Part shown: positions 16,455 through 31,573 of the stretch, piece after piece
Layout: every line of letters starts with the position of its first letter
Position numbering within the stretch: position 1 is the first letter of the stretch
NCBI GenBank assembly: GCA_038040175.1
Contig: JBBPIT010000009.1
Coordinates: forward strand, 6,931 to 70,930
Direction: 5' to 3'
Source of the DNA: Pseudomonadota bacterium
GTDB lineage: Bacteria; Pseudomonadota; Gammaproteobacteria; Burkholderiales; JACQAP01
Length of the DNA: 64,000 bases
The notes under the pieces: generated by a model
Seen by the model: the letters and a program-made list of their open reading frames with translations, nothing else
Databases searched by the model: none
What the model was told of the DNA's origin: nothing
Program-made: the position numbers and the translations under genes

Positions 16455-16469
16455 CTTCAATAATTTCTT

Positions 16470-16651
16470 AACACGAAGGAACACGAAGGGAAAACAAAAT
16501 CACACGAAGGAAAAACTGATAACCGGTCTGGCGCGCAAAGCGTCATCAATTTCCCCAGCAGAGATCGCGTATCAATTGACTCCCTTATTGTCTTCGTTAC
16601 TGCATCTCCTTCGTAATCCTTTCTTGCCTTTCCTTCGTGTTCCTTCGTGTT
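16470..16651. repeat. 182-bp MITE-like element with 20-bp perfect terminal inverted repeats made of ACACGAAGG units
   Basis: aacacgaaggaacacgaagg (16470-16489) is the exact reverse complement of ccttcgtgttccttcgtgtt (16632-16651). Extra cacgaagg/ccttcgt copies lie inside, and the interior is AT-richer. Confidence 0.9.
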
Positions 16652-16674
16652 GAGCGCGTTTCAAGGTTCCTTCA

Positions 16675-17012
16675 ATGTTGCACATCACCAACGGTGACAT
16701 CGCGGTCGAGCGGATGCGCGACGGCGGATTGCGCGGCGAATACCTGCCATGGCGCGACGCGCTGCACGAAGGGCCGGTGCCGGTCACTGCCACTCTGGAA
16801 GAACTTTCCGCCATCCGCCCCGGGAACTGGACGGTCCGGCGTTCGATTCCCAGCGCCTGAGGCTGACGCGCGCCGGCCACGAAGTCTTGGAGAACCGCAG
16901 GGACGCGGTTAAACTCCAGACGATAGACAGTTGGCTGGGTGGAACGCACCTTCTTCCCGGAACCATCTGGCGCTGGGACGGGGAGAAACAGCGGCTGTCG
17001 GCGCCGTCGTGA
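16675..17012 (+). pseudogene. Collapsed DUF1835/DUF3658-type gene (N- and C-terminal ends only, frameshifted)
   Basis: ORF 16675..16860 gives MLHITNGDIAVERMRDGGLRGEYLPWRDALHEGPVPVTATLEELSAIR, the DUF1835 N-terminal signature as I recall it. Another frame (16749..17012) gives LTRAGHEVLENRRDAVKLQTIDSWLGGTHLLPGTIWRWD, a C-terminal signature. The central roughly 200 aa are missing. Confidence 0.6.
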
Positions 17013-17047
17013 AACGCCGTTTTCCGCGGGCCGAGGAAAGGATTCGC

Positions 17048-17692
17048 ATGCGATTGTTTGCTTCTCGCCATCTGACCCGGACTCTCCTGCTGGGATTCCT
17101 GGTCGCGTTCAGCCTTGCGTGGCCCTCCCTCGCTGCCGACAAACACGCAAAGCCGAAGCCGAGCCGCGTCGAGCCCGCCGGCATGTACAGCAATTATGTG
17201 GATGAAGGTCAGACGGCGTTCGACAAGTATCTGGGCGACACCCGCCCGCTCACCGAAGCCGAACTGGTACCGGCCTTGCTGTCCGCGCTCGATCAGTTGT
17301 CCAAATACCCGCGGCCGGCTGTCGTGCCGGAAATCTTTCGCGTTTCTCAGGAGAGGCTCCAGGAGTTGTCGTGTACCTCCAAGTGCGGCGTGCTGGCCAC
17401 GTATCAGCCGGGCGAAGGGATTTTCCTGGACGAGCGCCTCAAGCCGGAAGCCAACCTGTTCGATCGTTCTGTGCTGTTGCACGAACTGGTGCATTACGTA
17501 CAGGAGCTCAATCACGAACGTGGAGACGCCAAGCCCTGTGAGCGCTGGTACTACCGCGAGGTCGAAGCGTACGCTATCCAGAAGACCTTCCTGATGCTGG
17601 TCGGCAGCCCGGTCCGGGTGGGTTACTCCGCCAACAAATCGACTTGCGACGCGCTGGACGATCGGCAGGCATCCAAGTCAAATCACCAGTAA
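17048..17692 (+). CDS. Secreted hypothetical protein with HExxH motif
   Basis: Internal ATG of ORF 16931..17692. Signal MRLFASRHLTRTLLLGFLVAFSLAWPSLAA, then the motif SVLLHELVHYVQ. I recognise no family. Confidence 0.55.
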   Translation: MRLFASRHLTRTLLLGFLVAFSLAWPSLAADKHAKPKPSRVEPAGMYSNYVDEGQTAFDKYLGDTRPLTEAELVPALLSALDQLSKYPRPAVVPEIFRVSQERLQELSCTSKCGVLATYQPGEGIFLDERLKPEANLFDRSVLLHELVHYVQELNHERGDAKPCERWYYREVEAYAIQKTFLMLVGSPVRVGYSANKSTCDALDDRQASKSNHQ

Positions 17693-17705
17693 GCCTCGTC
17701 CGCCG

Positions 17706-17740
17706 ACGGGCCGCCTGTAATCCGCAGGCGGCCCGTTGTC
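17706..17740 (+). terminator. Stem-loop after the HExxH protein gene
   Basis: ACGGGCCGCCTG-taatccg-CAGGCGGCCCGT, a 12-bp stem, followed by a weak T tract (tgtcttc). Confidence 0.55.
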
Positions 17741-17845
17741 TTCCCGCCGTCATTCGCGGCGAGTATCAAACGGATTGCGGCAATATATTGGACGACTGCT
17801 CGCGCAAGGCCAACAATCGTTCCTGATACCTGACCCGGAGAAAGC

Positions 17846-19000
17846 ATGACCGCTGCCCCGACCCCGTTCCGGCTGCATGTCGGCGACGACGTGCTCGCCG
17901 ATCTCAAGTCGCGTCTCGCCCGCGTGCGCTGGCCGGACGAAGTGCCGGACAACCACTGGAAATACGGAACGGATCTGCCTTACCTGAAATCGCTGGTGGA
18001 GTACTGGCGCGACCGCTACGACTGGCGCAAGCACGAAGCCGGGATCAACCGCTTCAACCAGTACAAGGTCAGGCTCGCCGGAATCGACGTGCACTACATC
18101 CGCGAGGAAGGCAAAGGCCCGAAGCCGATGCCTCTGTTGATCTCGCATGGCTGGCCGGGATCGGTGCACGAATTCCACAAGCTGATTCCGATGCTCACCG
18201 ATCCGGCGCGCTTCGGCGGCGACGCGGCAGACGCGTTCACTGTCGTCGCGCCGTCGCTGCCGGGGTACACCTTCTCCTTTACGCCGAACCAGCAGCGCTT
18301 CTCGGTCGAACAAATTGCCGACTTATTTGCGGAGTTGATGACCCGTGTACTAGGTTGCAAGCGCTTTGCCGCGCAGGGCGGCGACTGGGGCGCGTTCGTC
18401 ACCTCGCGGCTGGGTTACGCCTACCCGCAGCATCTGGCGGGCATTCACCTGAATTTGCTTGGGCTCAGGCGCGACACGGCGATGCCGGAGAACCCCACCG
18501 AAGACGAGCGGCGCTATTTCGAGCAGCGTGCGCAGTGGATGAAGGAGGAGGTCGGTTACACCTGGATCCAGGGCACCAAGCCGCAGACGCTGGCCTATGC
18601 CCTCACCGATTCGCCGGTCGGGCTGGCGGCGTGGATCGTCGAGAAGTTCCACACCTGGAGCGACCACAAGGGCGACCTCGACGGCTACATCGGCCGCGAC
18701 GCGATGCTCACCAACATCATGCTGTACTGGGTGACCGGCGCGATCGGTTCGTCGTTCTGGCCCTACTACGCGCGCATGCACGGTCCCTGGCCGATCCCGG
18801 ACGGTGAGCGCATTCAGGTGCCGATGGGCTACGCCGAGTTCCCGAAGGAGATCCTGCGTCCGCCGCGCTCGCTTGCGGAAAAGATGTACGCCGACATCCG
18901 CCGCTGGACCAGGATGCCGAAGGGCGGGCACTTCGCCGCGCTCGAACAGCCGGAGCTGCTGGCACAGGACATCCGCGAGTTCTTCCGGCCGCTGCGATAA
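17846..19000 (+). CDS. Epoxide hydrolase (microsomal EH-like, with N-terminal EHN domain)
   Basis: 384 aa with FRLHVGDDVLADLKSRLARVRWPDE, YDWRKHEAGINRFNQYK, IDVHYIRE, LLISHGWPGSVHEF, QGGDWGA and a C-terminal GGHFAALEQPELLAQDIREFFRPLR. Confidence 0.9.
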   Translation: MTAAPTPFRLHVGDDVLADLKSRLARVRWPDEVPDNHWKYGTDLPYLKSLVEYWRDRYDWRKHEAGINRFNQYKVRLAGIDVHYIREEGKGPKPMPLLISHGWPGSVHEFHKLIPMLTDPARFGGDAADAFTVVAPSLPGYTFSFTPNQQRFSVEQIADLFAELMTRVLGCKRFAAQGGDWGAFVTSRLGYAYPQHLAGIHLNLLGLRRDTAMPENPTEDERRYFEQRAQWMKEEVGYTWIQGTKPQTLAYALTDSPVGLAAWIVEKFHTWSDHKGDLDGYIGRDAMLTNIMLYWVTGAIGSSFWPYYARMHGPWPIPDGERIQVPMGYAEFPKEILRPPRSLAEKMYADIRRWTRMPKGGHFAALEQPELLAQDIREFFRPLR

Positions 19001-19035
19001 GGCCGGCCGCGTGCAAGATGGAGCGACCGTAAGAA

Positions 19036-19074
19036 CGGTGAAGGCGTGAAGGGTGAATGAGTGAAGGGGTGACG
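19036..19074. repeat. Single-armed GTGAAGG-type heptamer array
   Basis: cggtgaaggcgtgaagggtgaatgagtgaaggggtgacg, five GTGA units, 36 nt after the epoxide hydrolase stop. No CCTTCAC partner arm is nearby. Confidence 0.85.
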
Positions 19075-19097
19075 ACGCCTCCCGCGAGCGGAACCCC

Positions 19098-19772
19098 TTA
19101 ATCCCCGAACCCTCGACGAAGCCCCGCGCATGCGGGGCTTTCTGTCGGGGGCGGGGCGATGACTGATGCATAGCCGGCGCGTTCCAGTTCGCCCAGGTGC
19201 GCGAGATCTTCCGGGAGGTCCACATCGAATGCGAGCCCCGCACTTTCTACGGTTACGCATTGCACGCCGAGCTGCCGCACGTGCTCAAGATGGCGCACGA
19301 AGCTTCCCGGCCCGAAGGAAAAAGCGAATTCCAGCGACGGTTCCAGGCACAGGCCATTGGTCCCTTGCCGAGCCCGGTCCGGCGCGATGCCGACGCTGTG
19401 AGCCGACCCGGCGTCTGCGAGGCGTCGCAAGTCCTCCGCTTCCAACAGTGGAAGATCGCACGGGACTACCAGCATGTGCGACGCGCCCAGACGCCGGACT
19501 GCGAGTTGTGCTTGCCGCAACGCGCCGTTCAACCCGACGCACGCGCGTTCCTCGAGCACCTGCGCACCGAACTCGGCAGCGCGTGTGCGCGTTTCGCTGC
19601 ACCCGCTGACCAGCAGGGTCCGCTCCAGACCAGGAAATTGTGCGGCTCGCTCGAGTGTGCGCAAGAGCAGTCTTTCCAGGAACGCGCGGCGCCGCATGGG
19701 GTCGAGTGCCGGCGCCAGCCGGCTTTTGCCGTCGCGCAGGGACTTCATCGGCACGACCAGCCAGACACTCAT
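19098..19772 (-). CDS. cofC: 2-phospho-L-lactate (or PEP/3PG) guanylyltransferase, F420 biosynthesis
   Basis: 224 aa. MSVWLVVPMKSLRDGKSRL...GLNGALRQA...LVVPCDLPLL is the CofC/FbiD pattern. Its ATG overlaps the cofD stop (ATGA). Confidence 0.75.
   Translation of the reverse strand: MSVWLVVPMKSLRDGKSRLAPALDPMRRRAFLERLLLRTLERAAQFPGLERTLLVSGCSETRTRAAEFGAQVLEERACVGLNGALRQAQLAVRRLGASHMLVVPCDLPLLEAEDLRRLADAGSAHSVGIAPDRARQGTNGLCLEPSLEFAFSFGPGSFVRHLEHVRQLGVQCVTVESAGLAFDVDLPEDLAHLGELERAGYASVIAPPPTESPACAGLRRGFGD
19118..19141 (+). terminator. GC-rich stem-loop downstream of the epoxide hydrolase gene
   Basis: GAAGCCCCGC-gcat-GCGGGGCTT followed by tctgtc. It lies inside the last codons of the convergent cofC ORF, so its role is uncertain. 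Confidence 0.45.
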
Positions 19773-20734
19773 GCCCTTGCTCTTCTTGCCGCGGGTGAAG
19801 CGAACAGGCGGGTGAATTCGATGACCCGCCCGGCAAGTGCCGGCCGATCCCCCGGATCGTTCATGACGGTCGCCGTCGCGAGTGGGCGGATGCCCAGCTG
19901 CTCAATGGAGGCGCTCAGGGCCGCATCGGCGTGATCCACGACCAATGCGTCGATGAGGCCTTGATAGAATCGCGCGACCTCCACCGACGAAGGCTCCTTC
20001 CCCAGCTCGCGCATGATCTTGGCGGCAGGGCCCTTGAGCGCCTGTCCGGCGACGATGGGCGACACGGCGATCGCAGGCACCCGCCGGTGCTCGAGCGCGC
20101 TTCGCACTCCGGGGAGTGCGAGGATGGGAGCCACGCTCAAGTGCGGGTTCGACGGACAGATGACCACGGCGCTCAGCGATGGGCTGTCGAGGGCCGCGCG
20201 GAAAGCGGCTGCGATCCGCGCCCGTTCGGCGCCGGCGAACTCCAGGTTCGTCACGGCCGGCTCGGCGCGCCGCCGCACGAAATAATCCTGAAAGCTCAGT
20301 ACGCCCTCGACGGTGTGCACGAGGGTGCGTACCGGGTCATCGCTCATCGGCGTGATGCAGTGGCGGATGCCCAGGCTTGCGCACAACGCCCGGGTGACGG
20401 CGGAGAGGCTCTCCCCGGTGCGCAGCCGCCGCGTGCGCTCCACATGGGTGGCGAGGTCGCGGTCACCGAGGCGGAACCAGGTCTCTCCACCCAGTGCCTC
20501 CAGGCTCTGCATGAAGTTCCAGGTTTCTGCTGCGATACCCCAGCCCCGCGACGGATCGTTGATGCCCGCCAGCGTGTACATCACCGTGTCCAGATCCGGG
20601 GAAACATTCATCCCCAGATGCTCGAAGTCGTCTCCTGTGTTGACGACAACCGTCAGTTCATCGGGAGCGAGCACATCCGCGAGGCCCTTGGCGAGCTTCG
20701 CCCCTCCAACGCCGCCGGCAAGCGCGAGGATCAC
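19769..20734 (-). CDS. cofD: 2-phospho-L-lactate transferase, F420 biosynthesis
   Basis: ORF 19769..21211 is over-extended. A GTG at 20734 overlaps the upstream stop (GTGA) and gives (M)ILALAGGVGGAKLAKGLADVL...VVNTGDDFEHLGMNVSPDLDTVMYTLAG...GWGIAAETW, the CofD signature. The trimmed product is 321 aa (966 nt including the stop codon). Confidence 0.85.
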   Translation of the reverse strand: MILALAGGVGGAKLAKGLADVLAPDELTVVVNTGDDFEHLGMNVSPDLDTVMYTLAGINDPSRGWGIAAETWNFMQSLEALGGETWFRLGDRDLATHVERTRRLRTGESLSAVTRALCASLGIRHCITPMSDDPVRTLVHTVEGVLSFQDYFVRRRAEPAVTNLEFAGAERARIAAAFRAALDSPSLSAVVICPSNPHLSVAPILALPGVRSALEHRRVPAIAVSPIVAGQALKGPAAKIMRELGKEPSSVEVARFYQGLIDALVVDHADAALSASIEQLGIRPLATATVMNDPGDRPALAGRVIEFTRLFASPAARRARA

Positions 20735-21387
20735 GGTTCGCCGTCCTCGTAGCGGGTGACTTCGCAGACTGGACGGCGCCTGAACGGCTTGCCCTGGTCT
20801 GCCGGATAACCCAGCGTGACGATCGCTTGCGGCTCCCAGTCGGAGGGAAGTACAACCGCCGCCGATACCGCTTCCGGGCAGAACAGCGGCGCGCACATCC
20901 AGCATGCACCCAGGCCCGCGGCATGCGCGGCCAGCAGCAGATTCTGGGCGGCCATCGCTGTTCCCTGCGCTGCCATCAGTCGCTCTGCCTGATTGCGCTT
21001 TTCGTCGGGGTAGCAGTCCATGTCCGCCATGGTCATGCAAACCAGGATGAGTACCGGTGCGCCGGTCAGGCGCGAGTGGGAACGCGCCACGTCGGCGTCG
21101 ATGGCATCCGCGGGATCGCCGTCGCCCTGGCGATCCGCGCGCAGCTTCTCGCCCATGGATCGGGCGAGGTTTTCCTTCGCTGCCTGTGTCTCGATCACGA
21201 GGAAACGCCACGGCTGGCGATTGTGGGCGGACGCTGCCGTCACCGCAGTCTCAAGAAGAGAATCGACCAGCTCGCGTGCAACCGGCAACGGCAGATAACG
21301 CCGGATCGAGCGACGTCCCGCGACAGGATCGGCGAACGAGATAGCGTGGGCCGGGTCGTTTGCCAGGCGATTTTCCTTGACGCCCAT
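20731..21387 (-). CDS. Stand-alone nitroreductase-family protein (FbiB C-terminal-domain-like; candidate dehydro-F420-0 reductase)
   Basis: Trimmed to MGVKENRL (ATG at 21387, 2 nt after the cofE stop). RRSIRRYLPLPV...AASAHNRQPWRF...AAQNLLLAAHAAGLGACW is the nitroreductase fold. It sits between cofE and cofD. Confidence 0.7.
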   Translation of the reverse strand: MGVKENRLANDPAHAISFADPVAGRRSIRRYLPLPVARELVDSLLETAVTAASAHNRQPWRFLVIETQAAKENLARSMGEKLRADRQGDGDPADAIDADVARSHSRLTGAPVLILVCMTMADMDCYPDEKRNQAERLMAAQGTAMAAQNLLLAAHAAGLGACWMCAPLFCPEAVSAAVVLPSDWEPQAIVTLGYPADQGKPFRRRPVCEVTRYEDGEP

Positions 21388-21389
21388 GG

Positions 21390-22202
21390 TTATCGGAACA
21401 AGTCTATTTCCTTGGGGCGGATCAGCTCGGCTGCGCATCCGTTGTGCGCTTCGCCAGGCAGACCGCGGATCAGTACGATGGGCGTGCCTTCGTCGGACTG
21501 GCCCATCAACAGCGACGCGGCCGCCGCCAGTTCGTCGGCCAGGCCAACTTGCGTGATGCGTAGCGCCCGCCCAAACAGATCGGGCTTGCCGCGCAGGTCG
21601 AGCAGTGCCGGAACGCCGCTTGCGCCGATGGCAACGCCCACCGTGCCGTTGCGCCAGGCGCGGCCGTGGCTGTCGTTGATGATCACGCCAACATCAACCG
21701 CCGCGCGCTGCAGCAGTTCGTGCCGCAATTGCGTGCACTCGCCATCCGGGTCGCGCGGCAGCAGCAGCGCCCGGGTCTCCTGCGCATTGCCCTCCACGTT
21801 CGAAAAGTCGATACCGGCGTTCGCCATCACGAACCCGAGGCGGTGTACCACCACGATGACGTCGCGCCGGGCGCGCAGCACTTCAGAGGATTCGCGGAGG
21901 ATGAGCTCGATGACGCGCGGGTCCTTGTCGACGACCGTGGACAACTCCAGCGCGCGAGGGGATGGCGTCACCGTAGCAAGATCCACATGGCAGCCCCGGG
22001 CCTTGGACACGATCTTCTGCGCGAGCACCAGCACGTCGCCGGACGCCAGTTTCTCGCCGGAGCGCGCAACGGCGCTGATGATCGTCTCGCACAGATCGTC
22101 GCCTTCGCGCACCAGCGGCACGCCGGCCAGCGCGATGAGCCGAACCTCGCGTTTGCCTGCCGCTTTCGACGGGCGTGCGCCCGCATCCGCCATGACACCC
22201 AT
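21390..22202 (-). CDS. cofE: Coenzyme F420-0:L-glutamate ligase
   Basis: Trimmed to MGVMADAG; the ATG at 22202 shares its A with the npdG TGA stop. GDVLVLAQKIVSKARG, FVMANAGIDFSNV, VGVIINDSHGRAWRNGTVGVAIG and DELAAAASLLMGQSDEGTPIVLIRG match the CofE signature. Confidence 0.85.
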   Translation of the reverse strand: MGVMADAGARPSKAAGKREVRLIALAGVPLVREGDDLCETIISAVARSGEKLASGDVLVLAQKIVSKARGCHVDLATVTPSPRALELSTVVDKDPRVIELILRESSEVLRARRDVIVVVHRLGFVMANAGIDFSNVEGNAQETRALLLPRDPDGECTQLRHELLQRAAVDVGVIINDSHGRAWRNGTVGVAIGASGVPALLDLRGKPDLFGRALRITQVGLADELAAAASLLMGQSDEGTPIVLIRGLPGEAHNGCAAELIRPKEIDLFR

Positions 22203-22924
22203 CAGTGCTCCGCGGCGTCCAGGCGGGTGATGCGGATGCCGGCGCCGCCGTGAATCTTGTAGCGGGAATTGATCGCGATCAGGACCGACGTCAGCGCCTC
22301 GGCAGCCGCGGAGTTGGCGATGGGCCCGGCGTGTATGCCGCGCAGACCGATGTCCCCGGCAAGCTTGATGACCGTCTCGCGCGCGGGCACATCGTCCCCG
22401 CACACCAGCACGTCGCACTCCACTTCATGACCAAGGTCCTGCAGGAGATGTGCCGCCACGTTCTGGAATGCCGAGACTACCCTGACGGATTCGCCCAGCA
22501 AGGCCTGGATCGCCGCCACGGCTGACCCGTCCTCGGGGAGCTGGACGCGCGCGACCGTCGGGGGCACCAGTGGCACGGTGGTGTCGACGAGGATTTTTCC
22601 CTCGAGCGCTGGACGCACCTCTTCGACGGTGCCGCGCTGGGCGGCGTAGGGAACGCACAGGACAACGATCTGCGCGGACGCGGCGGCGCCGCGATAGCTG
22701 TCGTGCGAGACAGCGGCCCGCCCCAGCCGTGCATCGATCTGTGCGCACACCTGCGCTGCCTTCTCGGCGTTGCGCGAGCCGATGATGACCGGGTAGCCCG
22801 CATGCGCCCAGCGCAGCGCCAGTCCACTGCCTTCGGCGCCGGTGCCGCCCAGCACTGCAATCGTCGGTCGCGCTGAAGCGTTATCCGTAGTAGTCATTTC
22901 ATCCTTGAAAAAGTATTCCATCAC
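22202..22924 (-). CDS. npdG: NADPH-dependent F420 reductase (F420H2:NADP+ oxidoreductase)
   Basis: 240 aa with IAVLGGTGAEGSGLALRWAHAGYPVIIGSR, VPYAAQ, VVSAFQNV and GPIANSAAAEALTSVLI. Confidence 0.8.
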   Translation of the reverse strand: MMEYFFKDEMTTTDNASARPTIAVLGGTGAEGSGLALRWAHAGYPVIIGSRNAEKAAQVCAQIDARLGRAAVSHDSYRGAAASAQIVVLCVPYAAQRGTVEEVRPALEGKILVDTTVPLVPPTVARVQLPEDGSAVAAIQALLGESVRVVSAFQNVAAHLLQDLGHEVECDVLVCGDDVPARETVIKLAGDIGLRGIHAGPIANSAAAEALTSVLIAINSRYKIHGGAGIRITRLDAAEH

Positions 22925-22952
22925 AGAGGTTCATGAAGTGCGGTTTTTGGGT

Positions 22953-23912
22953 TCATCGGTCCGCAAGCGGCAGCACCTTGGCCGCGAACCGCCCCATCGC
23001 GGCGAGCGACTCATCCAGCGTGGGCCGCACGAAGTTGAACAGCAGGTGGCGCACTCCCAGGGCGCGGAATGCGCGGATGTCCTGCGCCACCTCCGCGTCG
23101 CTGCCGGTGAATGTCTGCCGCTGCCCGTCTTCGAGCGTGCTGGTGCGGCCTTCCCTGTACCAGGCCGCCCAGTACGCAAGGTCGATGCTGTCGGGATCGC
23201 GCTTTGCGCGGGTGGCATCCTCGCGCAACCGGGATAGCGCCTGGGAATAGCGCTCGACGGTGTTCAGCGGAAACTGCGGGTTGGAGCCGATCGGGTACCA
23301 GGCATCGCCCAGCGCCACCACACGTCGCAATGCCGCCGGGCTCTCGCCGCCGATCCACAGCGGCGGGTGCGGTTTCTGCGCGGGTTTGGGCAGAAAGCTG
23401 ATGTCCTGGAAATGCGCGTAGCTGCCAGCGAAACGCGGATCGTCTTCGGTCCAGAGCGTCTTGAAAATGTGCAGGTACTCATCCGTGACCTTGCCGCGCT
23501 CGGCGAAGGGCGGCACGCCGATGGCCCTGAATTCCTCGTCCATCCAGCCGGCGCCGCAGCCCACTGTCACCCGCCCCTGCGAGAGGATGTCGATGGTCGC
23601 CAGCGCCTTGGCCGTGAACACGGGATTGCGGTGAGGCACCACCATGACCGAAGTCAGCAAGCGGATCCTGGTCGTCGCGGCAGCCAGATAGGCCATCAGC
23701 ACGAGTTGTTCAAGGCAATCACCTTCGGCGGCACCCACCATCTTGCGCTCGGTGTTGTACGGATACGGCGAGGCGATCTGGCGCGGGATGACGATATGGT
23801 CGGGAATGGCAAGGTAGGCGAAGCCGAGTTCCTCACCCCGCCGGGCCAGTGCGACGATGCTCTCACGCGTTGCAAGTGCACCTCGTGTGGGAATGCTGAA
23901 GCCGTAATCCAC
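22953..23912 (-). CDS. Luciferase-like (LLM class) F420-dependent oxidoreductase
   Basis: 319 aa with LGFAYLAIPDHIV, RIRLLTSVMVVPHRNPVFTAKALATIDILSQGRVTVGCGAGWMDEEF and PHPPLWIGGESPAALRRVVALGDAWYP. Confidence 0.8.
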   Translation of the reverse strand: MDYGFSIPTRGALATRESIVALARRGEELGFAYLAIPDHIVIPRQIASPYPYNTERKMVGAAEGDCLEQLVLMAYLAAATTRIRLLTSVMVVPHRNPVFTAKALATIDILSQGRVTVGCGAGWMDEEFRAIGVPPFAERGKVTDEYLHIFKTLWTEDDPRFAGSYAHFQDISFLPKPAQKPHPPLWIGGESPAALRRVVALGDAWYPIGSNPQFPLNTVERYSQALSRLREDATRAKRDPDSIDLAYWAAWYREGRTSTLEDGQRQTFTGSDAEVAQDIRAFRALGVRHLLFNFVRPTLDESLAAMGRFAAKVLPLADR

Positions 23913-23972
23913 CGATCGAACCTCCTGTGTGTCTCTGTCGTGAGCTGCTTTTTCCAGAGTGAAAGCTGGCGC

Positions 23973-26435
23973 TTAGACCGGCGTTGCAGTCGCTGGCCGA
24001 GTGTTTGTCGCCTGGATGCGGGCACGCTTGCCTGCGGGCGTCAGCACGATCGGGGCGAGCGTCTGCGCCGCATACGAGCGCTCGCATTGCCCGGCTGGCG
24101 CCGCCGAATAGAGCGTCGTGCGCTGCTGCGCTACGCGTCCACAGGAGGCAATCAGTTCGTCCATGCGTTGTGGCGGCATTTCCTGTCCGTGACAGGTGCC
24201 TGCTGCGCGCGAAATACTCTCGTTCATCAGCGTGCCGCCGAGGTCGTTGGCGCCCGCCTGCAAACAGGCGCGCACCGCCTCCGCGCCCAGCTTCACCCAC
24301 GACACCTGCACGTTGGGAATCAGCGGATGCAGTGCCAGCCGCGCCACCGCATGCATCAGCACGGTCTCGCGGTAAGTGGGACCTTTGCGCGCCTTGCCAT
24401 GCAGGTACATCGGCGCTTCCATGTGCACGAAGGGCAGAGGGACGAACTCGGTGAACCCCTGGGTGCGCGCCTGCAGCGCGCGAATGCGCAGCAGATGCCG
24501 CGCCCAGTGCTCGTATCTGTCGACATGTCCGAACATGATGGTCGCGGTGGTCCTGAAGCCCGCCCGGTGCGAGGCCTCGATCACCTGCAGCCACTGCCCG
24601 GTGGTGAGCTTGTCGGGGCAGATGATGCGGCGCACTTCGTCATCCAGAATTTCCGCCGCGGTGCCGGGCAGGGTTCCCAGGCCGGCGTCACGCAGGCGGT
24701 GCAAAAATTCATCCACCGATAAATGCAGCGTCTGCGCGCCGTGCCATACCTCCAACGGAGAAAACGCGTGGACGTGCATGGGCGGGAGTGCCGACTTCAC
24801 TGCCCGGCACAGCGCCAGATAGGTTTCGCCCGTGTAATCGGGATGAATCCCGCCCTGCATGCACACCTCGGTGGCGCCGCGCTCCCACGCTTCCTCGGCG
24901 CGCCGCACGACTTCGTCGAGCCCCAGATCGTAAGGCGTGCCACGCAGATTGTCGGCGGCCTTGCCCTTGGAGAATGCGCAGAAATGGCAGCGGAAAGCGC
25001 ACACGTTGGTGTAGTTGATGTTGCGGTTGACCACGTAGCGCACCGTGTCGCCCACGGTGCGCCGGCGCAATTCGTCTGCCGCAGCGCAGACGGCATCGAA
25101 CTGCGCGCCGCGCGCCCGAAACAGCGCAACGATATCGCGCTCCTGCAGTGCTTGCCCGTCGACGGCTGCGTCGAGGATGCGTGCAATTTCTCGCATCGGC
25201 GCGCCCGCCGGGGTCATTGCCGGAACAGCGCTAATCTTTGCCGGAACTGCGCCTGACTGGCCCGGCGACCAGGCATCGGTCCGGGCGAATCCTTCGGCAT
25301 CGACCGCCCGCAGCACACGGGAAACCAGCGCAGGATCCTGCCAGGTCGCAGCGTCCCTGCAAAAGCCCGGATAGACGGCGAGCCGTTCGACCAGTACCTT
25401 GCCCGCGCCTTCGGTGTTCTCGCGCAACCTGACGATGTCCGGCCACGGCATCTCGGGGTTGACGTGATCGGGCGTGACCGGCGACACGCCGCCCCAGTCG
25501 TTCAGTCCGGCCGCGATCAGCTGCGTGTAAGCGTCCGGCGTCAGGTTCGGCGGCACCTGCAGGTTCATCTCCGGTCCGAAAATTATCCGGGCGACGGCCA
25601 GCGTCCACATCAACTCGGCGAACCCGGGCTCCGGTGCAGCGGCCATCTTCGTCGCGGACTTGGCGCGGAAGTTCTGGATGATCACTTCCTGGATGTGGCC
25701 GTAGGACTCGTGCAGCGCACGGATGGCAAGGAGTGAATCGATCCGCTCCTCCCGCGTCTCGCCGATCCCGATAAGGATGCCGGTGGTAAAGGGAACCTTC
25801 AGTTCGCCGGCGTGGCGCATCGTTTCCATCCGCACCGCCGGCGCTTTATCCGGAGAGCCATAGTGCGCGCCGCCCCGCTCGCACAGCCGCGTGGAGACAT
25901 TTTCGAGCATGATGCCCTGCGAGACCGACACGCGGCGCAGCAGTGCCACTTCTTCTCGCGACATCACACCGGGGTTGACGTGGGGCAGCAGACTCGTTTC
26001 CCGCAGCAGCAGCGCGCACATTTCTGCGAGATAGGACAGCGTTGTCCCATGCCCGAGCCGCGCCAGTTCCTCGCGCGCCGCGGCGTAGCGCAGTTCGGGC
26101 TTGTCGCCGAGGGTGAACAGCGCCTCGTGGCAGCCGGCGCGCTCGCCCGCGCGCGCGATCTCCAGCACCTGTTCGGGAGACAGATAGGCACGCGCGCCCC
26201 TGCGGGGCGTGGCAGCAAACGTGCAGTAATGGCAGACATCCCGGCACAGGTGGGTGAGCGCGATGAACACCTTGCGCGAATACGACACGACGTCGCCGTG
26301 ACCCATGTCGCGCAGCCGGGAGGCCTGGGCGATCAGTGCATCGGCGCCGGCTTGCAGCGCCACCCGCCGCGCTTCGTCATCGCTCAGGCGGCGGTGCGTG
26401 CTGGCCTCGAGAAGTGTGGCGACTGGCTCCGTCAT
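23973..26435 (-). CDS. fbiC: Bifunctional FO (7,8-didemethyl-8-hydroxy-5-deazariboflavin) synthase, CofG+CofH fusion
   Basis: ORF 23973..26606, trimmed to MTEPVATLLE (ATG at 26435). Two radical-SAM CxxxCxxC motifs are present (CRDVCHYCTFA and CAFRCHFCAF). The product of about 820 aa is colinear with FbiC. Confidence 0.9.
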   Translation of the reverse strand: MTEPVATLLEASTHRRLSDDEARRVALQAGADALIAQASRLRDMGHGDVVSYSRKVFIALTHLCRDVCHYCTFAATPRRGARAYLSPEQVLEIARAGERAGCHEALFTLGDKPELRYAAAREELARLGHGTTLSYLAEMCALLLRETSLLPHVNPGVMSREEVALLRRVSVSQGIMLENVSTRLCERGGAHYGSPDKAPAVRMETMRHAGELKVPFTTGILIGIGETREERIDSLLAIRALHESYGHIQEVIIQNFRAKSATKMAAAPEPGFAELMWTLAVARIIFGPEMNLQVPPNLTPDAYTQLIAAGLNDWGGVSPVTPDHVNPEMPWPDIVRLRENTEGAGKVLVERLAVYPGFCRDAATWQDPALVSRVLRAVDAEGFARTDAWSPGQSGAVPAKISAVPAMTPAGAPMREIARILDAAVDGQALQERDIVALFRARGAQFDAVCAAADELRRRTVGDTVRYVVNRNINYTNVCAFRCHFCAFSKGKAADNLRGTPYDLGLDEVVRRAEEAWERGATEVCMQGGIHPDYTGETYLALCRAVKSALPPMHVHAFSPLEVWHGAQTLHLSVDEFLHRLRDAGLGTLPGTAAEILDDEVRRIICPDKLTTGQWLQVIEASHRAGFRTTATIMFGHVDRYEHWARHLLRIRALQARTQGFTEFVPLPFVHMEAPMYLHGKARKGPTYRETVLMHAVARLALHPLIPNVQVSWVKLGAEAVRACLQAGANDLGGTLMNESISRAAGTCHGQEMPPQRMDELIASCGRVAQQRTTLYSAAPAGQCERSYAAQTLAPIVLTPAGKRARIQATNTRPATATPV

Positions 26436-26539
26436 GGTTTGCGTCTCGCAATCGTTCGGTTGCCTGAAGAATACCTGATACGGGTCCGGCAGAGGCGCGA
26501 TGTGCACTTGAACTCCGCTTTGGGCTAGCGATCGTGGGG

Positions 26540-27658
26540 CTAGTGATCGTGCCGGTGATGGGCGCTCAATGCGTCCGTGCCAAAGTCGGCGACCGGATCG
26601 CGCCATACCGTGTGCACGTGGTTCCCATCGCGCGTGGTGTTGTCGTACTCGACCAGCAGGCGATGTCCCTGGATACGGTAATAGTGCGGCCGTCCCGGTT
26701 CATTGCTTCCCGCCCAGGCAAGGTGAAGGCTCGGGAATGACGGACCGGTGATCTTGGCCATTTCGCCGTCGGCGATGTGGTCCGGCAGGCGTCGCACATA
26801 GACGTCCAGTAGCGCCCGCAGCATTTCCTGCTGCGAGGCGCTCATCGCCGCTGCGGCCAGGCCTTTCGGTACGGTCGTAAAGCGCAATGCGTCGATATGG
26901 GTTCCCGTGAGACCGAGCTTCGCTTCCTCGGCGTCCTGAACGCGTTCGAGCATATCCTGGAGTTCGCCCGTAAACTCGTTGCGCCATATCTTGGCCAGTC
27001 GCTTGGGGCCGTCGCCCTCGCTGAGAACGGTGCGATTTGCGCCCACCAGGTCGACTGGCGGTACCGGCGACAGCACAGCGACGGACCTTTGCTCGTCGCT
27101 CAGTGAGCGCAGCAGGTCGAACGCCAGGTCTTCACAGGCAGCCAGTGGTCGCAGAAGATGCGGCCCGAGCAAGGGCGACGACGCGGGATCTGCGCCGAAG
27201 AAGCAGGGTGTGAAGGCGCGCACCTCGCCAGCGGCGACCGTGTGGTGAATGGAGATATGATGGCCGCCGAAACGCCACGACCAGGTGTCGGCGCCAGGCG
27301 TACCGAACACGCGCAGGTAATAGCGCGCGGGATCGCGTCCGCGATCGAACCCGTACGACGCGCGCCAGCCTTCGAGTTCGTCAAGGACGTTCTCGAGTCC
27401 CATGATGGTCGAGGCGGTGACAAACCCTGCTCGGCTCAAGCCCGTGGCGAGCAGCCGCATGGTGAGTCGCTGCTGGGTCGGGCTCATCTCGCCGACAGTC
27501 AGACCGCCGTGGTCTGTCGGCGTGTAGAACCACAGCCGGCGTTCCTCGTCCGAAGGGAAGTCCCACTGCGCCACACGCCGCTGATCGGCCGGGAGTGTGT
27601 CGAGCAGCGCTTGGGCGGCCTCTGCCATGCGCGCGGCGATGCTGCGGCTGTCGCTCAT
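26540..27658 (-). CDS. DUF3500 domain protein
   Basis: 372 aa with AAQALLDTLPADQRRVAQWDFPSDEERRLWFYTP...GLTVGEMSPTQQRLTMRLL and WSWRFGGHHISIH. This is DUF3500 as I remember it. Confidence 0.65.
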   Translation of the reverse strand: MSDSRSIAARMAEAAQALLDTLPADQRRVAQWDFPSDEERRLWFYTPTDHGGLTVGEMSPTQQRLTMRLLATGLSRAGFVTASTIMGLENVLDELEGWRASYGFDRGRDPARYYLRVFGTPGADTWSWRFGGHHISIHHTVAAGEVRAFTPCFFGADPASSPLLGPHLLRPLAACEDLAFDLLRSLSDEQRSVAVLSPVPPVDLVGANRTVLSEGDGPKRLAKIWRNEFTGELQDMLERVQDAEEAKLGLTGTHIDALRFTTVPKGLAAAAMSASQQEMLRALLDVYVRRLPDHIADGEMAKITGPSFPSLHLAWAGSNEPGRPHYYRIQGHRLLVEYDNTTRDGNHVHTVWRDPVADFGTDALSAHHRHDH

Positions 27659-28827
27659 GCACCGGGTGCCCGCAGGCCGAAAATCAGTTCCGGGTCGCCG
27701 GGAACCCAGGTGCCGTCGAACTGTGAGCGGCGCCCGTTGCGGCGGGTGCGATCAAGAAGTTGCTGCCCGAGCGCGAGCTGTCCCGGTTCCCACTGTGCGA
27801 GGGCGGTCGGAACGTCACGTTGCCGATCGAGCGCGTCGGCCAGCGCCCAGGCGTCGGCGGCTGCCTTTGCCGTTCCGGCTGCCGCGTGCGGTCGCGCAAC
27901 GAACGCGGCGTCGCCGATCAGGCAGACGCGTCCGAAGGCCATGCGCGGCACCTCGATATCGTAGACGACCTGGAGGAACGGCTGCGCGGTGCTGCAAACG
28001 ACACGGGCGATTGGTTCGGGGAGGCGCGCCGCCGCTACAGCGCGCAGTTCTGCGACATGTTGCTCTCTGGCCGCGCCGGGTGGCAGCGATATGTCGCGAC
28101 GCTGACCGGTGTCATCGGTGAGCACGTCATCGAGGTCGCTGCCCTTGAGGTAGTTGCGGTACCAGACGAAGTTGATGAGCCGTTCGCCGGGCGTCACCGA
28201 ACCAGCCGGTCCGGGTATCGGGTACACGAGGATGTGACTGTTCGCGTAGACATAGTAGGTGATGGCGTCATCGAACACCGCACGGGTGGCCATGTCCAGC
28301 GAGGTTTCGGCAACCATGCCCCGCCACGCCACATATCCCGAGTACGACGGCTGCACCGCCGGCAACAGGCGCGCCCGCGCGGCCGAGCCGACGCCGTCGG
28401 CGCAGACCAGAAGATCGACTTGCTGCGATGGTTTGTTGGCGAAGTGAGCCTCCACGGCGTCGTCGCCGTCGACCCATCCGGTCATCTCGTGGCCGAGGTG
28501 ATACTGCGAGGGTTTGATGCGTGCCAGCAACTGCCGGTACACGGTATGCCACGAACTGAACCGGTACTGGTGCAGCCCGTCGTAGATCACCTCGCCGCGG
28601 CGGTCCAGATAGCGGATGTGCGAGGTGGCGACGCTGATGCGCTCCAGTGCGACGCCGGCGCGCTCGACCAGGTAGCGGGCGCTCTCAGGAAGGAATCCGA
28701 TGCCCGCCCCGCGTTGCACCAACTCAGAGGGTGAGCGCTCATAGACGTCGACTTCGACGCCAAGCTCGTGGAGCAACAGCGCCGCGGTCAGCCCGCCGAG
28801 AGAGCCGCCGATGACCGCAGCGCGCAT
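27655..28827 (-). CDS. FAD-dependent monooxygenase (aromatic-ring hydroxylase-like)
   Basis: 390 aa with MRAAVIGGSLGGLTAALLLHELGVEVDVYERS (GxGxxG), DLLVCADGVGS and GRVCLIGDAAFVARPHAAAGTAKAAADA. Its stop overlaps the DUF3500 start. Confidence 0.8.
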   Translation of the reverse strand: MRAAVIGGSLGGLTAALLLHELGVEVDVYERSPSELVQRGAGIGFLPESARYLVERAGVALERISVATSHIRYLDRRGEVIYDGLHQYRFSSWHTVYRQLLARIKPSQYHLGHEMTGWVDGDDAVEAHFANKPSQQVDLLVCADGVGSAARARLLPAVQPSYSGYVAWRGMVAETSLDMATRAVFDDAITYYVYANSHILVYPIPGPAGSVTPGERLINFVWYRNYLKGSDLDDVLTDDTGQRRDISLPPGAAREQHVAELRAVAAARLPEPIARVVCSTAQPFLQVVYDIEVPRMAFGRVCLIGDAAFVARPHAAAGTAKAAADAWALADALDRQRDVPTALAQWEPGQLALGQQLLDRTRRNGRRSQFDGTWVPGDPELIFGLRAPGA

Positions 28828-28839
28828 ACGGCCGCTCGG

Positions 28840-29361
28840 TCAGGGCTTGCCGAACGTGGCGATCTTGTCGACCGGGCACTCGAACAGCACCCGACGTTCG
28901 TTGCGCGACGGGTCGCGCAGACCATAGGGCGGGGGATTCTTGGTGTACTTGGTCCAGATCTTGTCGAGCTGGGCGGTGACGCGCGGGCCCTCCTTCGGAT
29001 CGTCCTCGGAGATCTCACGCTTGACGGTGCACTTGATGCTCACCCAGTGATACATGTTCGCCGGATTTACCAGCAGCATCGAGAGCTGCGGGTTGGCGCG
29101 GATCCACTCGACTTTCTTGCGGTGCGAAGCGACGTTGACCAGAACCGTCGAGCCCTCGTAGTCGAACCACATCGGCGTCAGGTTCGGTCGCCCATTGGAG
29201 CCCATTACCGCGAGTACGACCGGGATGGGTTCTTCGAGCAGGCGCTTGTAGATCGGGTCGATATCGTTCAACGAGTTGATCTTGTCTCGCGAGCCTACCG
29301 AAAACTGGTTAGCCTGCAAGCCGTTGGCGACATCAAGGAACTTAGCCACTGCGATTGCCAT
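28840..29361 (-). CDS. Pyridoxamine 5'-phosphate oxidase-fold protein (possible F420/FMN-binding split-barrel)
   Basis: 173 aa with PVVLAVMGSNGRPNLTPMWFDYEGSTVLVNVASHRKKVEWIRANPQLSMLLVNP, the PPOX-like split beta-barrel pattern. The cofactor cannot be told from the sequence. Confidence 0.6.
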   Translation of the reverse strand: MAIAVAKFLDVANGLQANQFSVGSRDKINSLNDIDPIYKRLLEEPIPVVLAVMGSNGRPNLTPMWFDYEGSTVLVNVASHRKKVEWIRANPQLSMLLVNPANMYHWVSIKCTVKREISEDDPKEGPRVTAQLDKIWTKYTKNPPPYGLRDPSRNERRVLFECPVDKIATFGKP

Positions 29362-29418
29362 AACCCCCTCCCCCTTATGATTGGTGAAAACCTGCGAGCC
29401 ACTTTATCACTGCCCGGG

Positions 29419-29523
29419 ATGCATTTGGAAGGGCAATTCGCTGCGCTCGAACAGCCGGAGCTGCTGGCACAGGAAATCCGCGAGTTTTTACGCCCTTTGC
29501 GCCAGGAATTGATAGGGGCGTAG
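29419..29523 (+). pseudogene. 3'-terminal fragment of an epoxide hydrolase paralog
   Basis: It translates to MHLEGQFAALEQPELLAQEIREFLRPLRQELIGA*, compared with the full gene tail MPKGGHFAALEQPELLAQDIREFFRPLR* at 18917-19000. The nucleotide core gcgctcgaacagccggagctgctggcacagga is identical in both (29443 onward and 18938 onward). No upstream coding part remains. Confidence 0.75.
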
Positions 29524-29684
29524 CGTCCATCAATCCCTTCGTGCTTTGAGCTGCCGAAATCCGAACCGGATGCGGCAGGAGGGGCAGTGCCGAGGAAGCC
29601 GCAACACCTGGCCAATCTGTCGCGGCTGCGGTTGTATGACGTGGTGCCTTGGTGTTGGATTGCCGTTGTGATATGGTTACCCAT

Positions 29685-29930
29685 ATGAAGACAACCGTAG
29701 ATATTGCTGACCCATTGCTCGACGAGGCGAAAAGAGTCGCAAACCGCGACGGTACGACTGTCAAGGCGCTGCTGGAGCAGGGGCTGAGACAGGTGCTGTC
29801 GGAGCGCAAGACCGCCGGCGCATTTCGCCTGCGCAAAGCGACATTCCGTGGGCGCGGACTGCAGTCCGGCGTTGCACATCTGTCCTGGGACCGAATTCGC
29901 GATCTTGCCTACGAGGGGCGAGGCGGATGA
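29685..29930 (+). CDS. vapB: Type II antitoxin, VapB family
   Basis: Trimmed to MKTTVDIADPLLDEAKRVANRDGTTVKALLEQGLRQVL. It overlaps the downstream PIN gene by 4 nt. Confidence 0.8.
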   Translation: MKTTVDIADPLLDEAKRVANRDGTTVKALLEQGLRQVLSERKTAGAFRLRKATFRGRGLQSGVAHLSWDRIRDLAYEGRGG

Positions 29931-30361
29931 TCGCTCTTGACACCAACATCTTGGTGTACGCGCATCGCGAGGAAGCCGCCTGGCACCACGCTGCCTACGA
30001 GAAACTTGAAGAACTGGCCGTAGGTCGCTCGGCCTGGGCGATTCCTTGGCCCTGTATTCATGAATTTCTGGCGATTACGACGCATCCGCGGATCTTCGAT
30101 CCACCCACACCGCTGGCCAAGGGGATGGACCAGGTGGAAGCCTGGCTGGAGTCGCCGACACTGTTTGTGCTATCGGAATCCGGAAATTACTGGCAAGAAC
30201 TGCGGCCTCTCCTGGAGGCGGGCAAAATCGCGGGCCCTCAGGTTCACGACGCGCGTATCGCGGCGCTGTGTATGCAGCATGGGGTTCGAGAACTTTGGAC
30301 CGCAGATCGTGACTTCGGGAGATTTCCCGATCTAAAAGTTGTAAATCCGCTGGTCGCCTGA
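29927..30361 (+). CDS. vapC: PIN-domain ribonuclease toxin, VapC family
   Basis: 144 aa with MIALDTNILVYAHRE...HDARIAALCMQHGVRELWTADRDFGRF, carrying the PIN acidic residues. Confidence 0.85.
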   Translation: MIALDTNILVYAHREEAAWHHAAYEKLEELAVGRSAWAIPWPCIHEFLAITTHPRIFDPPTPLAKGMDQVEAWLESPTLFVLSESGNYWQELRPLLEAGKIAGPQVHDARIAALCMQHGVRELWTADRDFGRFPDLKVVNPLVA

Positions 30362-30399: not shown

Positions 30400-30599
30400 A
30401 TGCGTGAGGAAGGTGAATCGCTCCGCGGGGGTTGTCCAGGTTCGACGTGCCACGTATTACAGCCACGCTCAAGACCGATGACGGGGCGCTGATCTACCTG
30501 TCCTACAACGGCATTAACCAGCACTCCGCCGAAAGCGCGGAGCGACTCTGCAAGGAGGAGCTGCTGACCACCCAGGACATTCCCTACTTCACACAATGA
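30400..30599 (+). pseudogene. Degraded DUF3237 (UPF0311)-like gene fragment
   Basis: One frame gives EGESLRGGCPGS. The frame from 30447 gives VPRITATLKTDDGALIYLSYNGINQHSAESAERLCKEELLTTQDIPYFTQ*. This resembles the central part of DUF3237 proteins as I recall them (FEG..LRG.V.PGG ... Y.L.TDDGALIY). The N-terminus is missing and the frame is broken. Confidence 0.45.
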
Positions 30600-30967
30600 C
30601 GGCGCAGCCAATCGGCGAAGGTCGCCTCGTCCATTTCGCCGGCTGCGACTGCGAGCATGGTGAGAACGCAAGCAGCATCGTCCGCGACTAGCCGGTACCC
30701 ATTCAAACGAAGAAAAAGCTCGACTGAGACGAACGCGGTCCGTTTGTTGCCGTCCACGAACGGGTGATTTCGTGCGATGCCGACGCCATACGAGGCGGCG
30801 AGTTCTGCAACGTCAGGCTCGCCGTAGGCCACTAGATTCATCGGTCGCGCAAGCGCCGATTCCAGCAAACCTATGTCTCGGACGTCGGGGCTACCTCCGT
30901 GTTCAGCGAGTTGTTCCTCATGTACTGCAAGGACGACGGTAGGGTCGATCCAAACCCATTCCGTCAT
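30584..30967 (-). CDS. doc: Doc (death-on-curing) Fic-family toxin
   Basis: 127 aa with VLAVHEEQLAEHGG...GLLESALARP...ARNHPFVDGNKRTAF, which is the Fic/Doc motif. Confidence 0.9.
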   Translation of the reverse strand: MTEWVWIDPTVVLAVHEEQLAEHGGSPDVRDIGLLESALARPMNLVAYGEPDVAELAASYGVGIARNHPFVDGNKRTAFVSVELFLRLNGYRLVADDAACVLTMLAVAAGEMDEATFADWLRRHCVK

Positions 30968-31188: not shown

Positions 31189-31573
31189 GAGGTACCTCAG
31201 CCGAGTTATAACAATCGTTACATTACATTGATATTTAGATAGTTTCAAACTTGATTGACTGTCTGGACAAGTCCGTCCGATCGCTCCTCCCGCTACCCGC
31301 TTTCGAGCGCATGAACTACTTTAAGGCTAGGTTTTCGGCAGCGTTATGGAGCCGTGTAAAGCGGTAGCCGTCACGATGGTCGCCACGATGATAGTGAGAC
31401 GCGCGCTTTTTCGGCCGGCGGTTGCCACGCCGAGTCAATGGAAAGTCTCTGCAATCGTCACTGGATCCCGTCTGCTGGACAATCTCCGGCAATGAGGTTG
31501 TAATGCCGCGACACGGCGCAACGTACACCGTGATATCAAGACCAGATCGAATTTGGCAACGCGGAGGAGAATC

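Follow-up and report, generated by a model that had tools for sequence, protein, structure and literature searches.

What raises questions about the locus studied here is that one gene end occurs in it twice, on either side of a block of unrelated genes. The locus belongs to a 64,000-nt stretch of a contig assigned to the Burkholderiales (JBBPIT010000009.1, assembly GCA_038040175.1; hereafter the window). In it, an intact epoxide hydrolase (EH) gene, EH1, is followed by a predicted F420 biosynthesis cluster with linked redox genes, and about 10.4 kb downstream by a short frame that resembles the end of EH1. Is this frame the footprint of an island, the rest of a lost paralog, or something else? 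We propose, with a probability of about 0.9, that the short EH fragment is the tail of a truncated second EH copy (EH2) beside a horizontally exchanged insert that has no integrase. The whole account, including the recombination pathway, in which an EH-anchored insertion of the cassette was followed by erosion of EH2, stands at about 0.6.

EH1 (17846-19000, plus strand) encodes 384 amino acids (aa) with Pfam matches to EHN (5.6e-35) and Abhydrolase_1, and its C-terminus reads GGHFAALEQPELLAQDIREFFRPLR before the stop codon. The frame at 29419-29523, also on the plus strand, reads GMHLEGQFAALEQPELLAQEIREFLRPLRQELIGA before its stop, and the gene body upstream is absent. The direct repeat reported in the initial annotation is real: the two 3′-ends share an exact repeat of 32 nt (18938-18969 and 29443-29474) and match at 63 of 71 positions in a local alignment of 18926-18996 with 29431-29501. 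The count of 44 matches in 45 positions given there for 18938-18982 and 29443-29487 became 43 of 45 on recounting. Simple arithmetic puts the chance expectation of a 32-nt exact repeat in 64 kb at about 1e-10, and a repeat search of 17-31 kb returned the EH pair as the sole long family (88 nt, 83%), the runners-up being 28 nt long and 75-79% identical.

Not all of the downstream frame comes from an EH gene, as had been assumed. The EH-derived part is only about 29442-29505 (plus strand), the last 64 nt of a second, 5′-truncated EH copy that is now read through to 29523; its counterpart is EH1 nt 1092-1155 (18937-19000, plus strand), in the alignment register 18926 = 29431. To its left, 29414-29441 (encoding “PGMHLEGQF”) is not EH-derived and belongs to the native upstream region of the PNPOx operon, found too in loci L001, L002, L004, and L105 (loci and contigs used for comparison carry L numbers). 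To its right, the old EH2 stop codon, which is TAG in the relative L085, is CAG in the window (29503-29505), and the QELIGA tail is read-through. Apart from three changes (H to Q, F to L, and stop to Q), the fragment has the consensus C-terminus of 120 EH orthologs. It falls in the orthologous group of EH1 and is no nearer to another paralog, none having matched it among the available sequences. A 251-aa open reading frame (ORF; 28768-29523, plus strand) runs antisense to the PNPOx-like gene and has the EH remnant as its tail; being a spurious read-through, it could mislead gene callers.

Look-ups of cofC homologs returned five independent contigs in which EH is convergent on cofC and the left junction, J1, is the same as in the window: L105 (NCBI GCA_936414735.1), L106 and L107 (both JGI), L108 (Logan ERR4998642), and L109 (GCA_041497595.1). 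The locus L105/L110 is collinear with window 17764-29441. The upstream region of the PNPOx operon (29362-29441, minus strand), which is native to the block and forms the right end of the cassette, is homologous in L001, L002, and L004; it is 93% identical to that of L105/L110, where it is about 35 nt longer. To its right, L105/L110 carries EH nt ~762-1155 in frame, an EH2 of 394 nt that is called as a 152-aa ORF (P0241) and is the counterpart of the window's 251-aa antisense frame. Since L105/L110 keeps this 394-nt EH2 at the same position, the window fragment is the trimmed end of EH2. By its own account, the initial annotation would have been refuted by a full second EH gene in a relative with the F420 genes in between; this is borne out only in part, as the second EH of L105/L110 amounts to 34% of the gene.

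The right side of the block can therefore be followed through two joins. The left edge of EH2 in L105/L110 (J2′) lies at a GCG(G)CC microhomology common to the PNPOx upstream region (as in L004) and EH nt ~755-762. J2′ recurs in a further genome, represented by P0242 (85% identity along the full query, its block-derived N-terminus included), in which the EH2 stop is lost. In the window, the join J2 (29431-29441, plus strand) is the block motif GGGCAATTCGC, which matches GGGCACTTCGC at EH nt 1081-1091 at 10 of 11 positions. In L110, GGGCAATTCGC is followed by block-native sequence, then J2′, then EH2 from nt ~762, whereas in the window the motif passes directly into EH nt 1092. Judged by this alignment, J2 is in all likelihood the site of a secondary microhomology deletion of about 350 nt between two GGGCA.TTCGC motifs. 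Beyond EH2, L110 (10391-10630, aligning to window 29437-29648) has the same intergenic region, then a 5′ part of a BTAD regulator gene (BTAD1) of about 400 nt, a full DUF3237 gene, a full PBP gene, and a BTAD regulator; the right flank of the window follows the L110 order in a more eroded state.

A chimeric contig, joined through the 32-nt repeat in the course of assembly, would give a similar picture. The repeat is indeed an assembly hazard, and Logan contigs break in its core, as expected at k = 31. Still, in several SRR289612xx runs the Logan assemblies agree fully with the window (100% identity) on either side of the core and end inside it: the PNPOx upstream region with the left part of the remnant was assembled independently in several runs, as was the core with the right part of the remnant and vapBC, and contig L104 spans the core. 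Independent assemblies thus match both flanks, and the junction is not due to an error of a single assembly. The overall layout also recurs in the unrelated assemblies L105-L109, and a single chimeric join cannot put both copies on one contig, which makes this explanation the least credible of all those considered. L104, together with L099, comes from a sibling strain (SRR28961271) that is 99.87% identical to the window over 3.8 kb. Four of its five differences lie within 12 nt of the EH2 remnant (29475-29500; TTCTTCCGGCCG vs. TTTTTACGCCCT), and this clustering suggests a patch event, not point mutations that arose separately.

Is the block an insertion? Informative relatives came from exact look-ups of EH and cofC homologs. 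The EH protein of the window has one match at 100% identity (P0001), annotated as coming from a Pseudomonadota metagenome-assembled genome (MAG), although an exact look-up of the protein returned no record. EH orthologs that are 82-94% identical occur in Burkholderiales-like MAGs and in soil metagenomes. Upstream of EH, synteny is conserved in L081, L083, L085, L086, L089, L093, L105, and L109, every relative examined having ApbA, aminotransferase, alpha/beta hydrolase, Sel1, and hypothetical genes in synteny there, and the DNA 3′ of EH is hypervariable: it holds a PBP gene (Peripla_BP_6) and then TauE in L081, L083, and L086; doc/phd, further genes, and PBP in L089-L092; doc/phd, PBP, and BTAD in L093; and in L085, the closest relative (EH 93.9% identical in nucleotides and 94% in amino acids), 116 nt and then two tandem BTAD regulators. 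No F420 genes were found at the EH locus in L081, L083, L085, L086, or L089-L093. With blastn, L085 9008-11154 matches window 16853-18999 (92.5%), its segment 11081-11321, which runs from the EH 3′-end across the intergenic region into BTAD1, matches window 29431-29633 (70.7%, E 9e-34), and its second regulator, BTAD2, matches window 34845-38038 (74%). In L085, EH is thus contiguous with the sequence that stands to the right of the fragment in the window, so the fragment is the original EH end with its native downstream DNA. These alignments support the view that the block is an insertion relative to L085, the closest relative without it, and bear out the proposal of the initial annotation that a block was inserted at the EH end and displaced the old one. 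The two tandem BTAD/MalT-like regulators of L085 (11272-17748; 1071 and 1066 aa) are each about 75% identical to the window's full-length copy.

The same comparison bears on another possibility: that an independent EH paralog had stood on the right of the F420 genes from the start, unconnected with their arrival, and that the fragment is what survives of it. The longer EH piece at the same position in L105/L110 would be expected if this were so. However, both the remnant and the L110 EH2 fall within the EH1 orthologous group, each closest to the EH of its resident clade: the remnant has its closest match in the EH end of L085 (58 of 64 positions), and the L110 EH2 is closest to the EH genes of L089 and L105 (88-89.5%, vs. 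82-85% for the window group). Moreover, the sequence behind EH2 is precisely what stands behind the one EH of L085, and in two genomes EH2 begins at an identical truncation point, J2′, where it is joined to the PNPOx upstream region. An independent paralog is thus very improbable. The initial annotation's second option, a second EH gene almost wholly deleted, was right in that EH2 has lost all but 64 nt; the lost copy was a 5′-truncated duplicate made by the insertion rather than an independent paralog.

The block has moved recently. In a sliding comparison of the window with L105, the upstream genes and EH1 are 62-86% identical, and the stretch from 19146 to 29441 is 93-99% identical; the left boundary of high identity lies between 18997 and 19116. 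Gene by gene, the block is 93.7-97.5% identical in nucleotides (third codon positions 90-96%), compared with 66-84% (third positions 49-66%) for EH1 and the six genes upstream, and past EH2 the right flank is again backbone-like (68-81% between the window and L110). Selection on proteins cannot account for the pattern, and the contrast between block and backbone points to a cassette recently exchanged between diverged lineages. Horizontal transfer of the block is supported by this sequence comparison.

The left junction carries a trace of an earlier neighbor. At J1, the EH stop codon is followed, after one or two bases, by the last ~29 nt of a PBP gene of the Peripla_BP_6 family (19001-19030, plus strand, with CKMERP and the stop codon at 19010-19030), and then by the native PBP-downstream spacer with GTGAAGG-like repeats, up to the 3′-end of cofC (19031-19097, plus strand). 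A metagenome search with cofC returned just two short loci; one of them, contig L094, was decisive for J1. It is 95% identical in nucleotides to window 19002-21318 and has an intact PBP 3′-end (encoding TTCKMERP and stop) convergent on cofC, and its PBP is 83-89% identical in nucleotides to the PBP genes 3′ of EH in L081, L083, L086, L089, and L093. Most simply, J1 reflects a later deletion of a PBP gene that once lay between EH and the cassette, as it does in L094. The window and L105-L109 have J1 in common (TAA/GGCCGGCCGC..CAAGAT.GAGCGACCGTAA, the slash following the EH stop codon), and 34 of 38 positions of the junction remnant are identical between the window and the L105 type; such similarity is much greater than neutral divergence of the backbone would leave, and J1 thus seems to move together with the block. 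We also observed tandem GTGAAGG-like motifs (GGTGTGA in L089) in variable copy number 3′ of the PBP stop codon in L081, L086, L089, L093, and L094; such motifs persist beside the PBP remnant in the window (19031-19075). In L105-L108, the ~100 nt between the PBP remnant and the end of cofC are unrelated to the sequence in the window, L109, and L094.

From these junctions, we infer the following pathway and order of events. A 10.4-kb cassette (19001-29441, the F420 genes plus a PNPOx-like/FAD monooxygenase/DUF3500 trio), with the last ~29 nt of a PBP gene at its left end and the PNPOx promoter region at its right end, would have recombined into a chromosomal hot spot directly behind EH. Homology with EH would have guided one of the joins, and the other would have been illegitimate, at a microhomology. 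Possible routes are homology-facilitated illegitimate recombination (HFIR) and, equivalently, a single crossover of a circularised fragment carrying the 3′ part of EH. Either route would duplicate the 3′ part of EH, with a complete EH1 on the left and on the right a promoter-less EH2 (nt ~762 to the end) that would stay joined to the old downstream DNA. Being redundant, EH2 would decay: a later deletion at the 11-nt near-identity (GGGCAATTCGC/GGGCACTTCGC) would have spared 64 nt, and the stop codon would have mutated. The cassette, with its PBP-remnant junction, would later have been exchanged between lineages with deeply diverged backbones, the flanking EH copies being the probable homology arms. 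A duplicated EH segment does flank the insert (nt ~762-1155 on both sides in L105/L110, of which 64 nt are left in the window), and microhomology is present at the illegitimate joins (GCG(G)CC at J2′, 10 of 11 nt at J2). Two other schemes were given up: a 75-nt target duplication by insertion in situ, in view of the 394-nt EH2 of L105/L110 and of GGGCAATTCGC being native to the block; and a tandem duplication, which needs a precise deletion of the second block copy.

Several points weigh against this pathway. A recombination pathway is not observable from sequence, and EH1 of the window shows no clear donor-type tract, so that the left crossover cannot be placed: EH1 is uniformly ~94% identical to the EH genes of L085 and L109 and has only its final CGATAA in common with that of L105. 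Comparisons of the 64-nt remnant depend on a handful of sites. The comparison covers contigs rather than whole genomes, and a second F420 block or EH paralog elsewhere is possible. Finally, two deeply diverged backbones have the same right-flank order (intergenic region, truncated BTAD1, DUF3237), which an old structure passed down vertically would also explain, at the price of a later allelic replacement of the block and of gene conversion between EH1 and EH2.

Such an old structure, the main rival of our account, would have arisen once, as EH1-J1-block-J2′-EH2, before the window and L105 lineages parted; the block would have been homogenised by homologous replacement with crossovers inside it or at its ends, the similarity of EH1 and EH2 would be due to gene conversion, and block-less relatives such as L085 would have lost the cassette through recombination between EH1 and EH2. 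It accounts well for the right flank, where the derived order (EH2, intergenic region, truncated BTAD1, DUF3237) is present in both genomes at a backbone-like divergence of 68-81%, and for a J1 common to both clades, and a pop-out between the direct repeats would yield exactly the arrangement in L085. It fits less well with the identity of the J1 remnant (34/38) in a near-saturated backbone (third positions 49-66%), where J1 looks as if it was transferred with the block. Gene conversion from EH1 to EH2 predicts a remnant resembling its own EH1; yet the variant in the sibling strain is nearer to L085 (62 of 64) than to the window's EH1 (58 of 64), and the L110 EH2 falls with the L089/L105 clade, apart from the window remnant. 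We regard a single ancient origin as rather unlikely. A J1 and a block that are ~96% identical in diverged backbones, next to an EH2 of resident type, would instead favor repeated transfer of the cassette through its EH arms.

A bolder extension of arm-mediated transfer, which we put forward tentatively and consider doubtful, is that the F420 cassette is a self-targeting mobile unit that needs no integrase, with the EH1/EH2 repeats as its portable homology arms. Through RecA-mediated recombination between these repeats, the cassette would be released as a circle; this circle, or linear DNA with both arms, would re-insert at the EH gene of related genomes; and every re-insertion would make a new EH2 of resident type. 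If true, this would explain the identical J1, the ~96% identity of the block in near-saturated backbones, and the clade-specific EH2.

A classical island, in which an integrase, since lost, acted at the 3′-end of EH and left the two EH ends as attL and attR, was the first candidate of the initial annotation. It would account for the 32-nt identical core, the intact target gene, and the empty site in L085, and most of the remaining evidence contradicts it. As noted from the outset, no integrase is present: among the ORFs of 17-44 kb no recombinase or transposase gave a Pfam match, none is among the called genes of L105/L110, and no integrase or recombinase was found in the cassette loci L002, L005, L016, and L019. 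The ends of the insert lie off the repeat core, the left one past the stop codon at the PBP remnant, 31 nt beyond the core, and the right one at a microhomology deletion, 2 nt before it. The repeat was once at least 394 nt long, as in L105/L110, with its edge J2′ in EH nt ~762, and integrase core sites are normally far shorter than this. In L094, moreover, the cassette adjoins an intact PBP gene. An integrase island is largely refuted and has very little probability. A composite transposon or insertion sequence was likewise rejected: no transposase was found among the Pfam matches, the repeat search gave no inverted repeats where the block begins and ends, and the duplication far exceeds a target-site duplication. 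ARAGORN predicted a 97-nt tRNA-Arg(TCG) at 29789-29885, within vapB, which we rejected as a false positive, there being no Rfam tRNA at the gathering threshold; a tRNA-targeted island is therefore not supported.

The EH-anchored insertion that we favor can be compared with known systems. Incoming DNA reportedly recombines through a conserved gene part, displacing the old gene end downstream, where it decays, at type VI secretion system effector, rhs, and contact-dependent growth inhibition loci (for example in effector displacement in V. cholerae); these orphan modules diversify toxin-immunity pairs, unlike the cofactor cassette here, whose displaced piece is functionless. In E. coli, integration by single crossover or HFIR leaves gene-end duplications of 109-950 bp (PMC3240628). 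Similar to such products, the present locus combines homology at one gene end with an illegitimate microhomology join and has no mobility genes, and the 394 nt of L110 fall in the range of 10^2-10^3 bp of HFIR duplications, which are known from naturally transformable bacteria and from conjugation in E. coli. It differs in that a natural metabolic cassette of 10.4 kb in wild genomes is involved, that the event is reconstructed, and that the deletions at J1 and J2 have reshaped the ends. With integrase islands the locus shares an insert between an intact gene and a displaced 3′ copy, an empty site, and a slightly different composition, but not an integrase, ends at the core, or a short original repeat, which here was hundreds of nucleotides long; nor does their left end consist of a fused gene remnant.

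F420 biosynthesis genes have a history of horizontal transfer into Proteobacteria (reviewed in PMC8498797). The cluster in the window has the same gene set and fused FbiC as the proteobacterial clusters described there, and differs in showing a specific recent transfer with junctions at nucleotide level and in its linkage to a PNPOx-like/FAD monooxygenase/DUF3500 trio. The mechanism is not new, and the locus is a well-resolved, fairly ordinary case of the exchange of a metabolic block in soil bacteria. Its value is as a nucleotide-level case of a predicted F420 pathway and linked redox enzymes moving between uncultured soil Betaproteobacteria-like lineages without a mobility gene. It shows that a short, “att-like” gene-end repeat can be the eroded rest of a far longer recombination duplication, so that for annotation, gene-end repeats alone are insufficient for calling integrase islands. 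For F420 biology, it adds a recent spread of the pathway and a tight linkage to the trio that is conserved across phyla.

All genes from 19098 to 29361, cofC through the PNPOx-like gene, are on the minus strand, as first described. In order of coordinates, they are cofC/fbiD, of the 2-phospho-L-lactate guanylyltransferase family (19098-19772; Pfam CofC 9.5e-23); cofD/fbiA (19769-20734; Pfam CofD; the L105 ortholog has 321 aa and 95% aa identity); a nitroreductase-like gene resembling the FbiB C-terminal domain (20731-21405), assigned by its L105 ortholog (PF00881), which matches window 20737-21390 at 91.7% aa identity; cofE, encoding F420-0:gamma-glutamyl ligase (21390-22202; Pfam F420_ligase 1.5e-74); an fno-like F420-dependent NADP oxidoreductase gene (22202-22897; Pfam F420_oxidored 4.4e-16); a luciferase-like monooxygenase (LLM) gene (22953-23912; Pfam Bac_luciferase 3.9e-52); and fbiC, a fused CofG/CofH radical-SAM FO synthase gene (23973-26435; two Pfam Radical_SAM matches and CofH_C), whose start was set from the 820-aa ortholog in L105. 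The trio follows, with genes for a DUF3500 protein (26540-27658; Pfam DUF3500 8.8e-81), an FAD-dependent monooxygenase (27655-28827; Pfam FAD_binding-like and FAD_binding_3), and a PNPOx-like protein (28840-29361; Pfam PNPOx_N 3.9e-11), the last being the first gene of the trio in the direction of transcription. Together, FbiC (CofG plus CofH), CofC/FbiD, CofD/FbiA, and CofE make this a predicted F420 biosynthesis cluster.

A compositional comparison, as suggested in the initial annotation, discriminated poorly: the GC content of the block (65.7%) is above that of the flanks (61-62%), but at third codon positions the block genes (0.72-0.83) are not above EH1 and dctP (0.83-0.86), and composition is thus not used as evidence of foreign origin. 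A terminator and promoter scan of 18800-19400 gave no prediction; a GC hairpin at 19121-19138 is not claimed as a terminator.

A search with the FAD monooxygenase among genome contigs gave 80 loci (L001-L080), about 60 of which keep the gene order of the window's PNPOx-like/FAD monooxygenase/DUF3500 trio (26540-29361), at 52-95% aa identity. The hosts include Rokubacteria, Acidimicrobiia and other Actinomycetota, Dormibacterota, Chloroflexota, and Proteobacteria; in Betaproteobacteria MAGs, the trio is directly followed by fbiC-LLM-fno-cofE-cofD-cofC. The trio may belong to an F420-dependent pathway of unassigned function. EH adjoins the cassette in none of the 80 loci. In L019 (CP070643.1, Betaproteobacteria bacterium bin90, locus 3854-21167), a BTAD/LuxR-like regulator flanks the cassette on one side and, on the other, a dctM with 81% identity to that of the window; the same neighbors thus occur in a different order. 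A third context for the left end is found in L095 (Ga0213853_11247227), where cofC-cofD is 90% identical to the window, homology ends at window 19174, and the sequence past this point holds a gene for a small membrane protein.

To the right of the EH2 remnant, the native EH-downstream intergenic region (29506-29586, plus strand), recognized from the alignments with L085 and L110, leads into the 5′ remnant of a BTAD/MalT-like regulator gene (29587-29650, plus strand; ~21 codons, beginning VPRKPQHLANLSRLRLYD), which matches the starts of BTAD1 in L085 (VPKKPQQQLAKLSRPRLHN) and of the BTAD1 fragment in L110 (VPKKIPTLAKLSRPRLYD). Here, too, the toxin-antitoxin modules and the gene fragment mentioned in the initial annotation were recovered. 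A vapB-vapC pair (29685-30361, plus strand; Pfam VapB_antitoxin and PIN, the former at E 1.7e-4 and 21.9 bits, slightly under the 23.4-bit gathering threshold) is inserted in the truncated BTAD gene. It is followed by a DUF3237 gene fragment (30432-30599, plus strand; Pfam DUF3237 5e-6, profile positions 67-111 only), 81% identical in nucleotides to the full DUF3237 gene of L110, and by a doc (Fic)-phd (MazE-like) pair (30584-31248, minus strand; Pfam Fic and MazE_antitoxin), 83% identical in nucleotides to the pair directly 3′ of EH in L089 and 71% to that of L093. The variable stretch from EH to the TauE side is rich in toxin-antitoxin genes: in addition to vapBC and doc/phd, we observed two AbiEii/DUF6036-like nucleotidyltransferase ORFs (38171-38755 and 42821-43438), whose AbiEii scores are slightly under the Pfam threshold. 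Between doc/phd and these ORFs lie dctPQM and then the full-length BTAD/MalT-like regulator gene (34830-38036, plus strand; 1068 aa; Pfam BTAD, AAA_16, and Trans_reg_C), which is 74% identical in nucleotides to L085 14563-17750 and serves as the right anchor of synteny.

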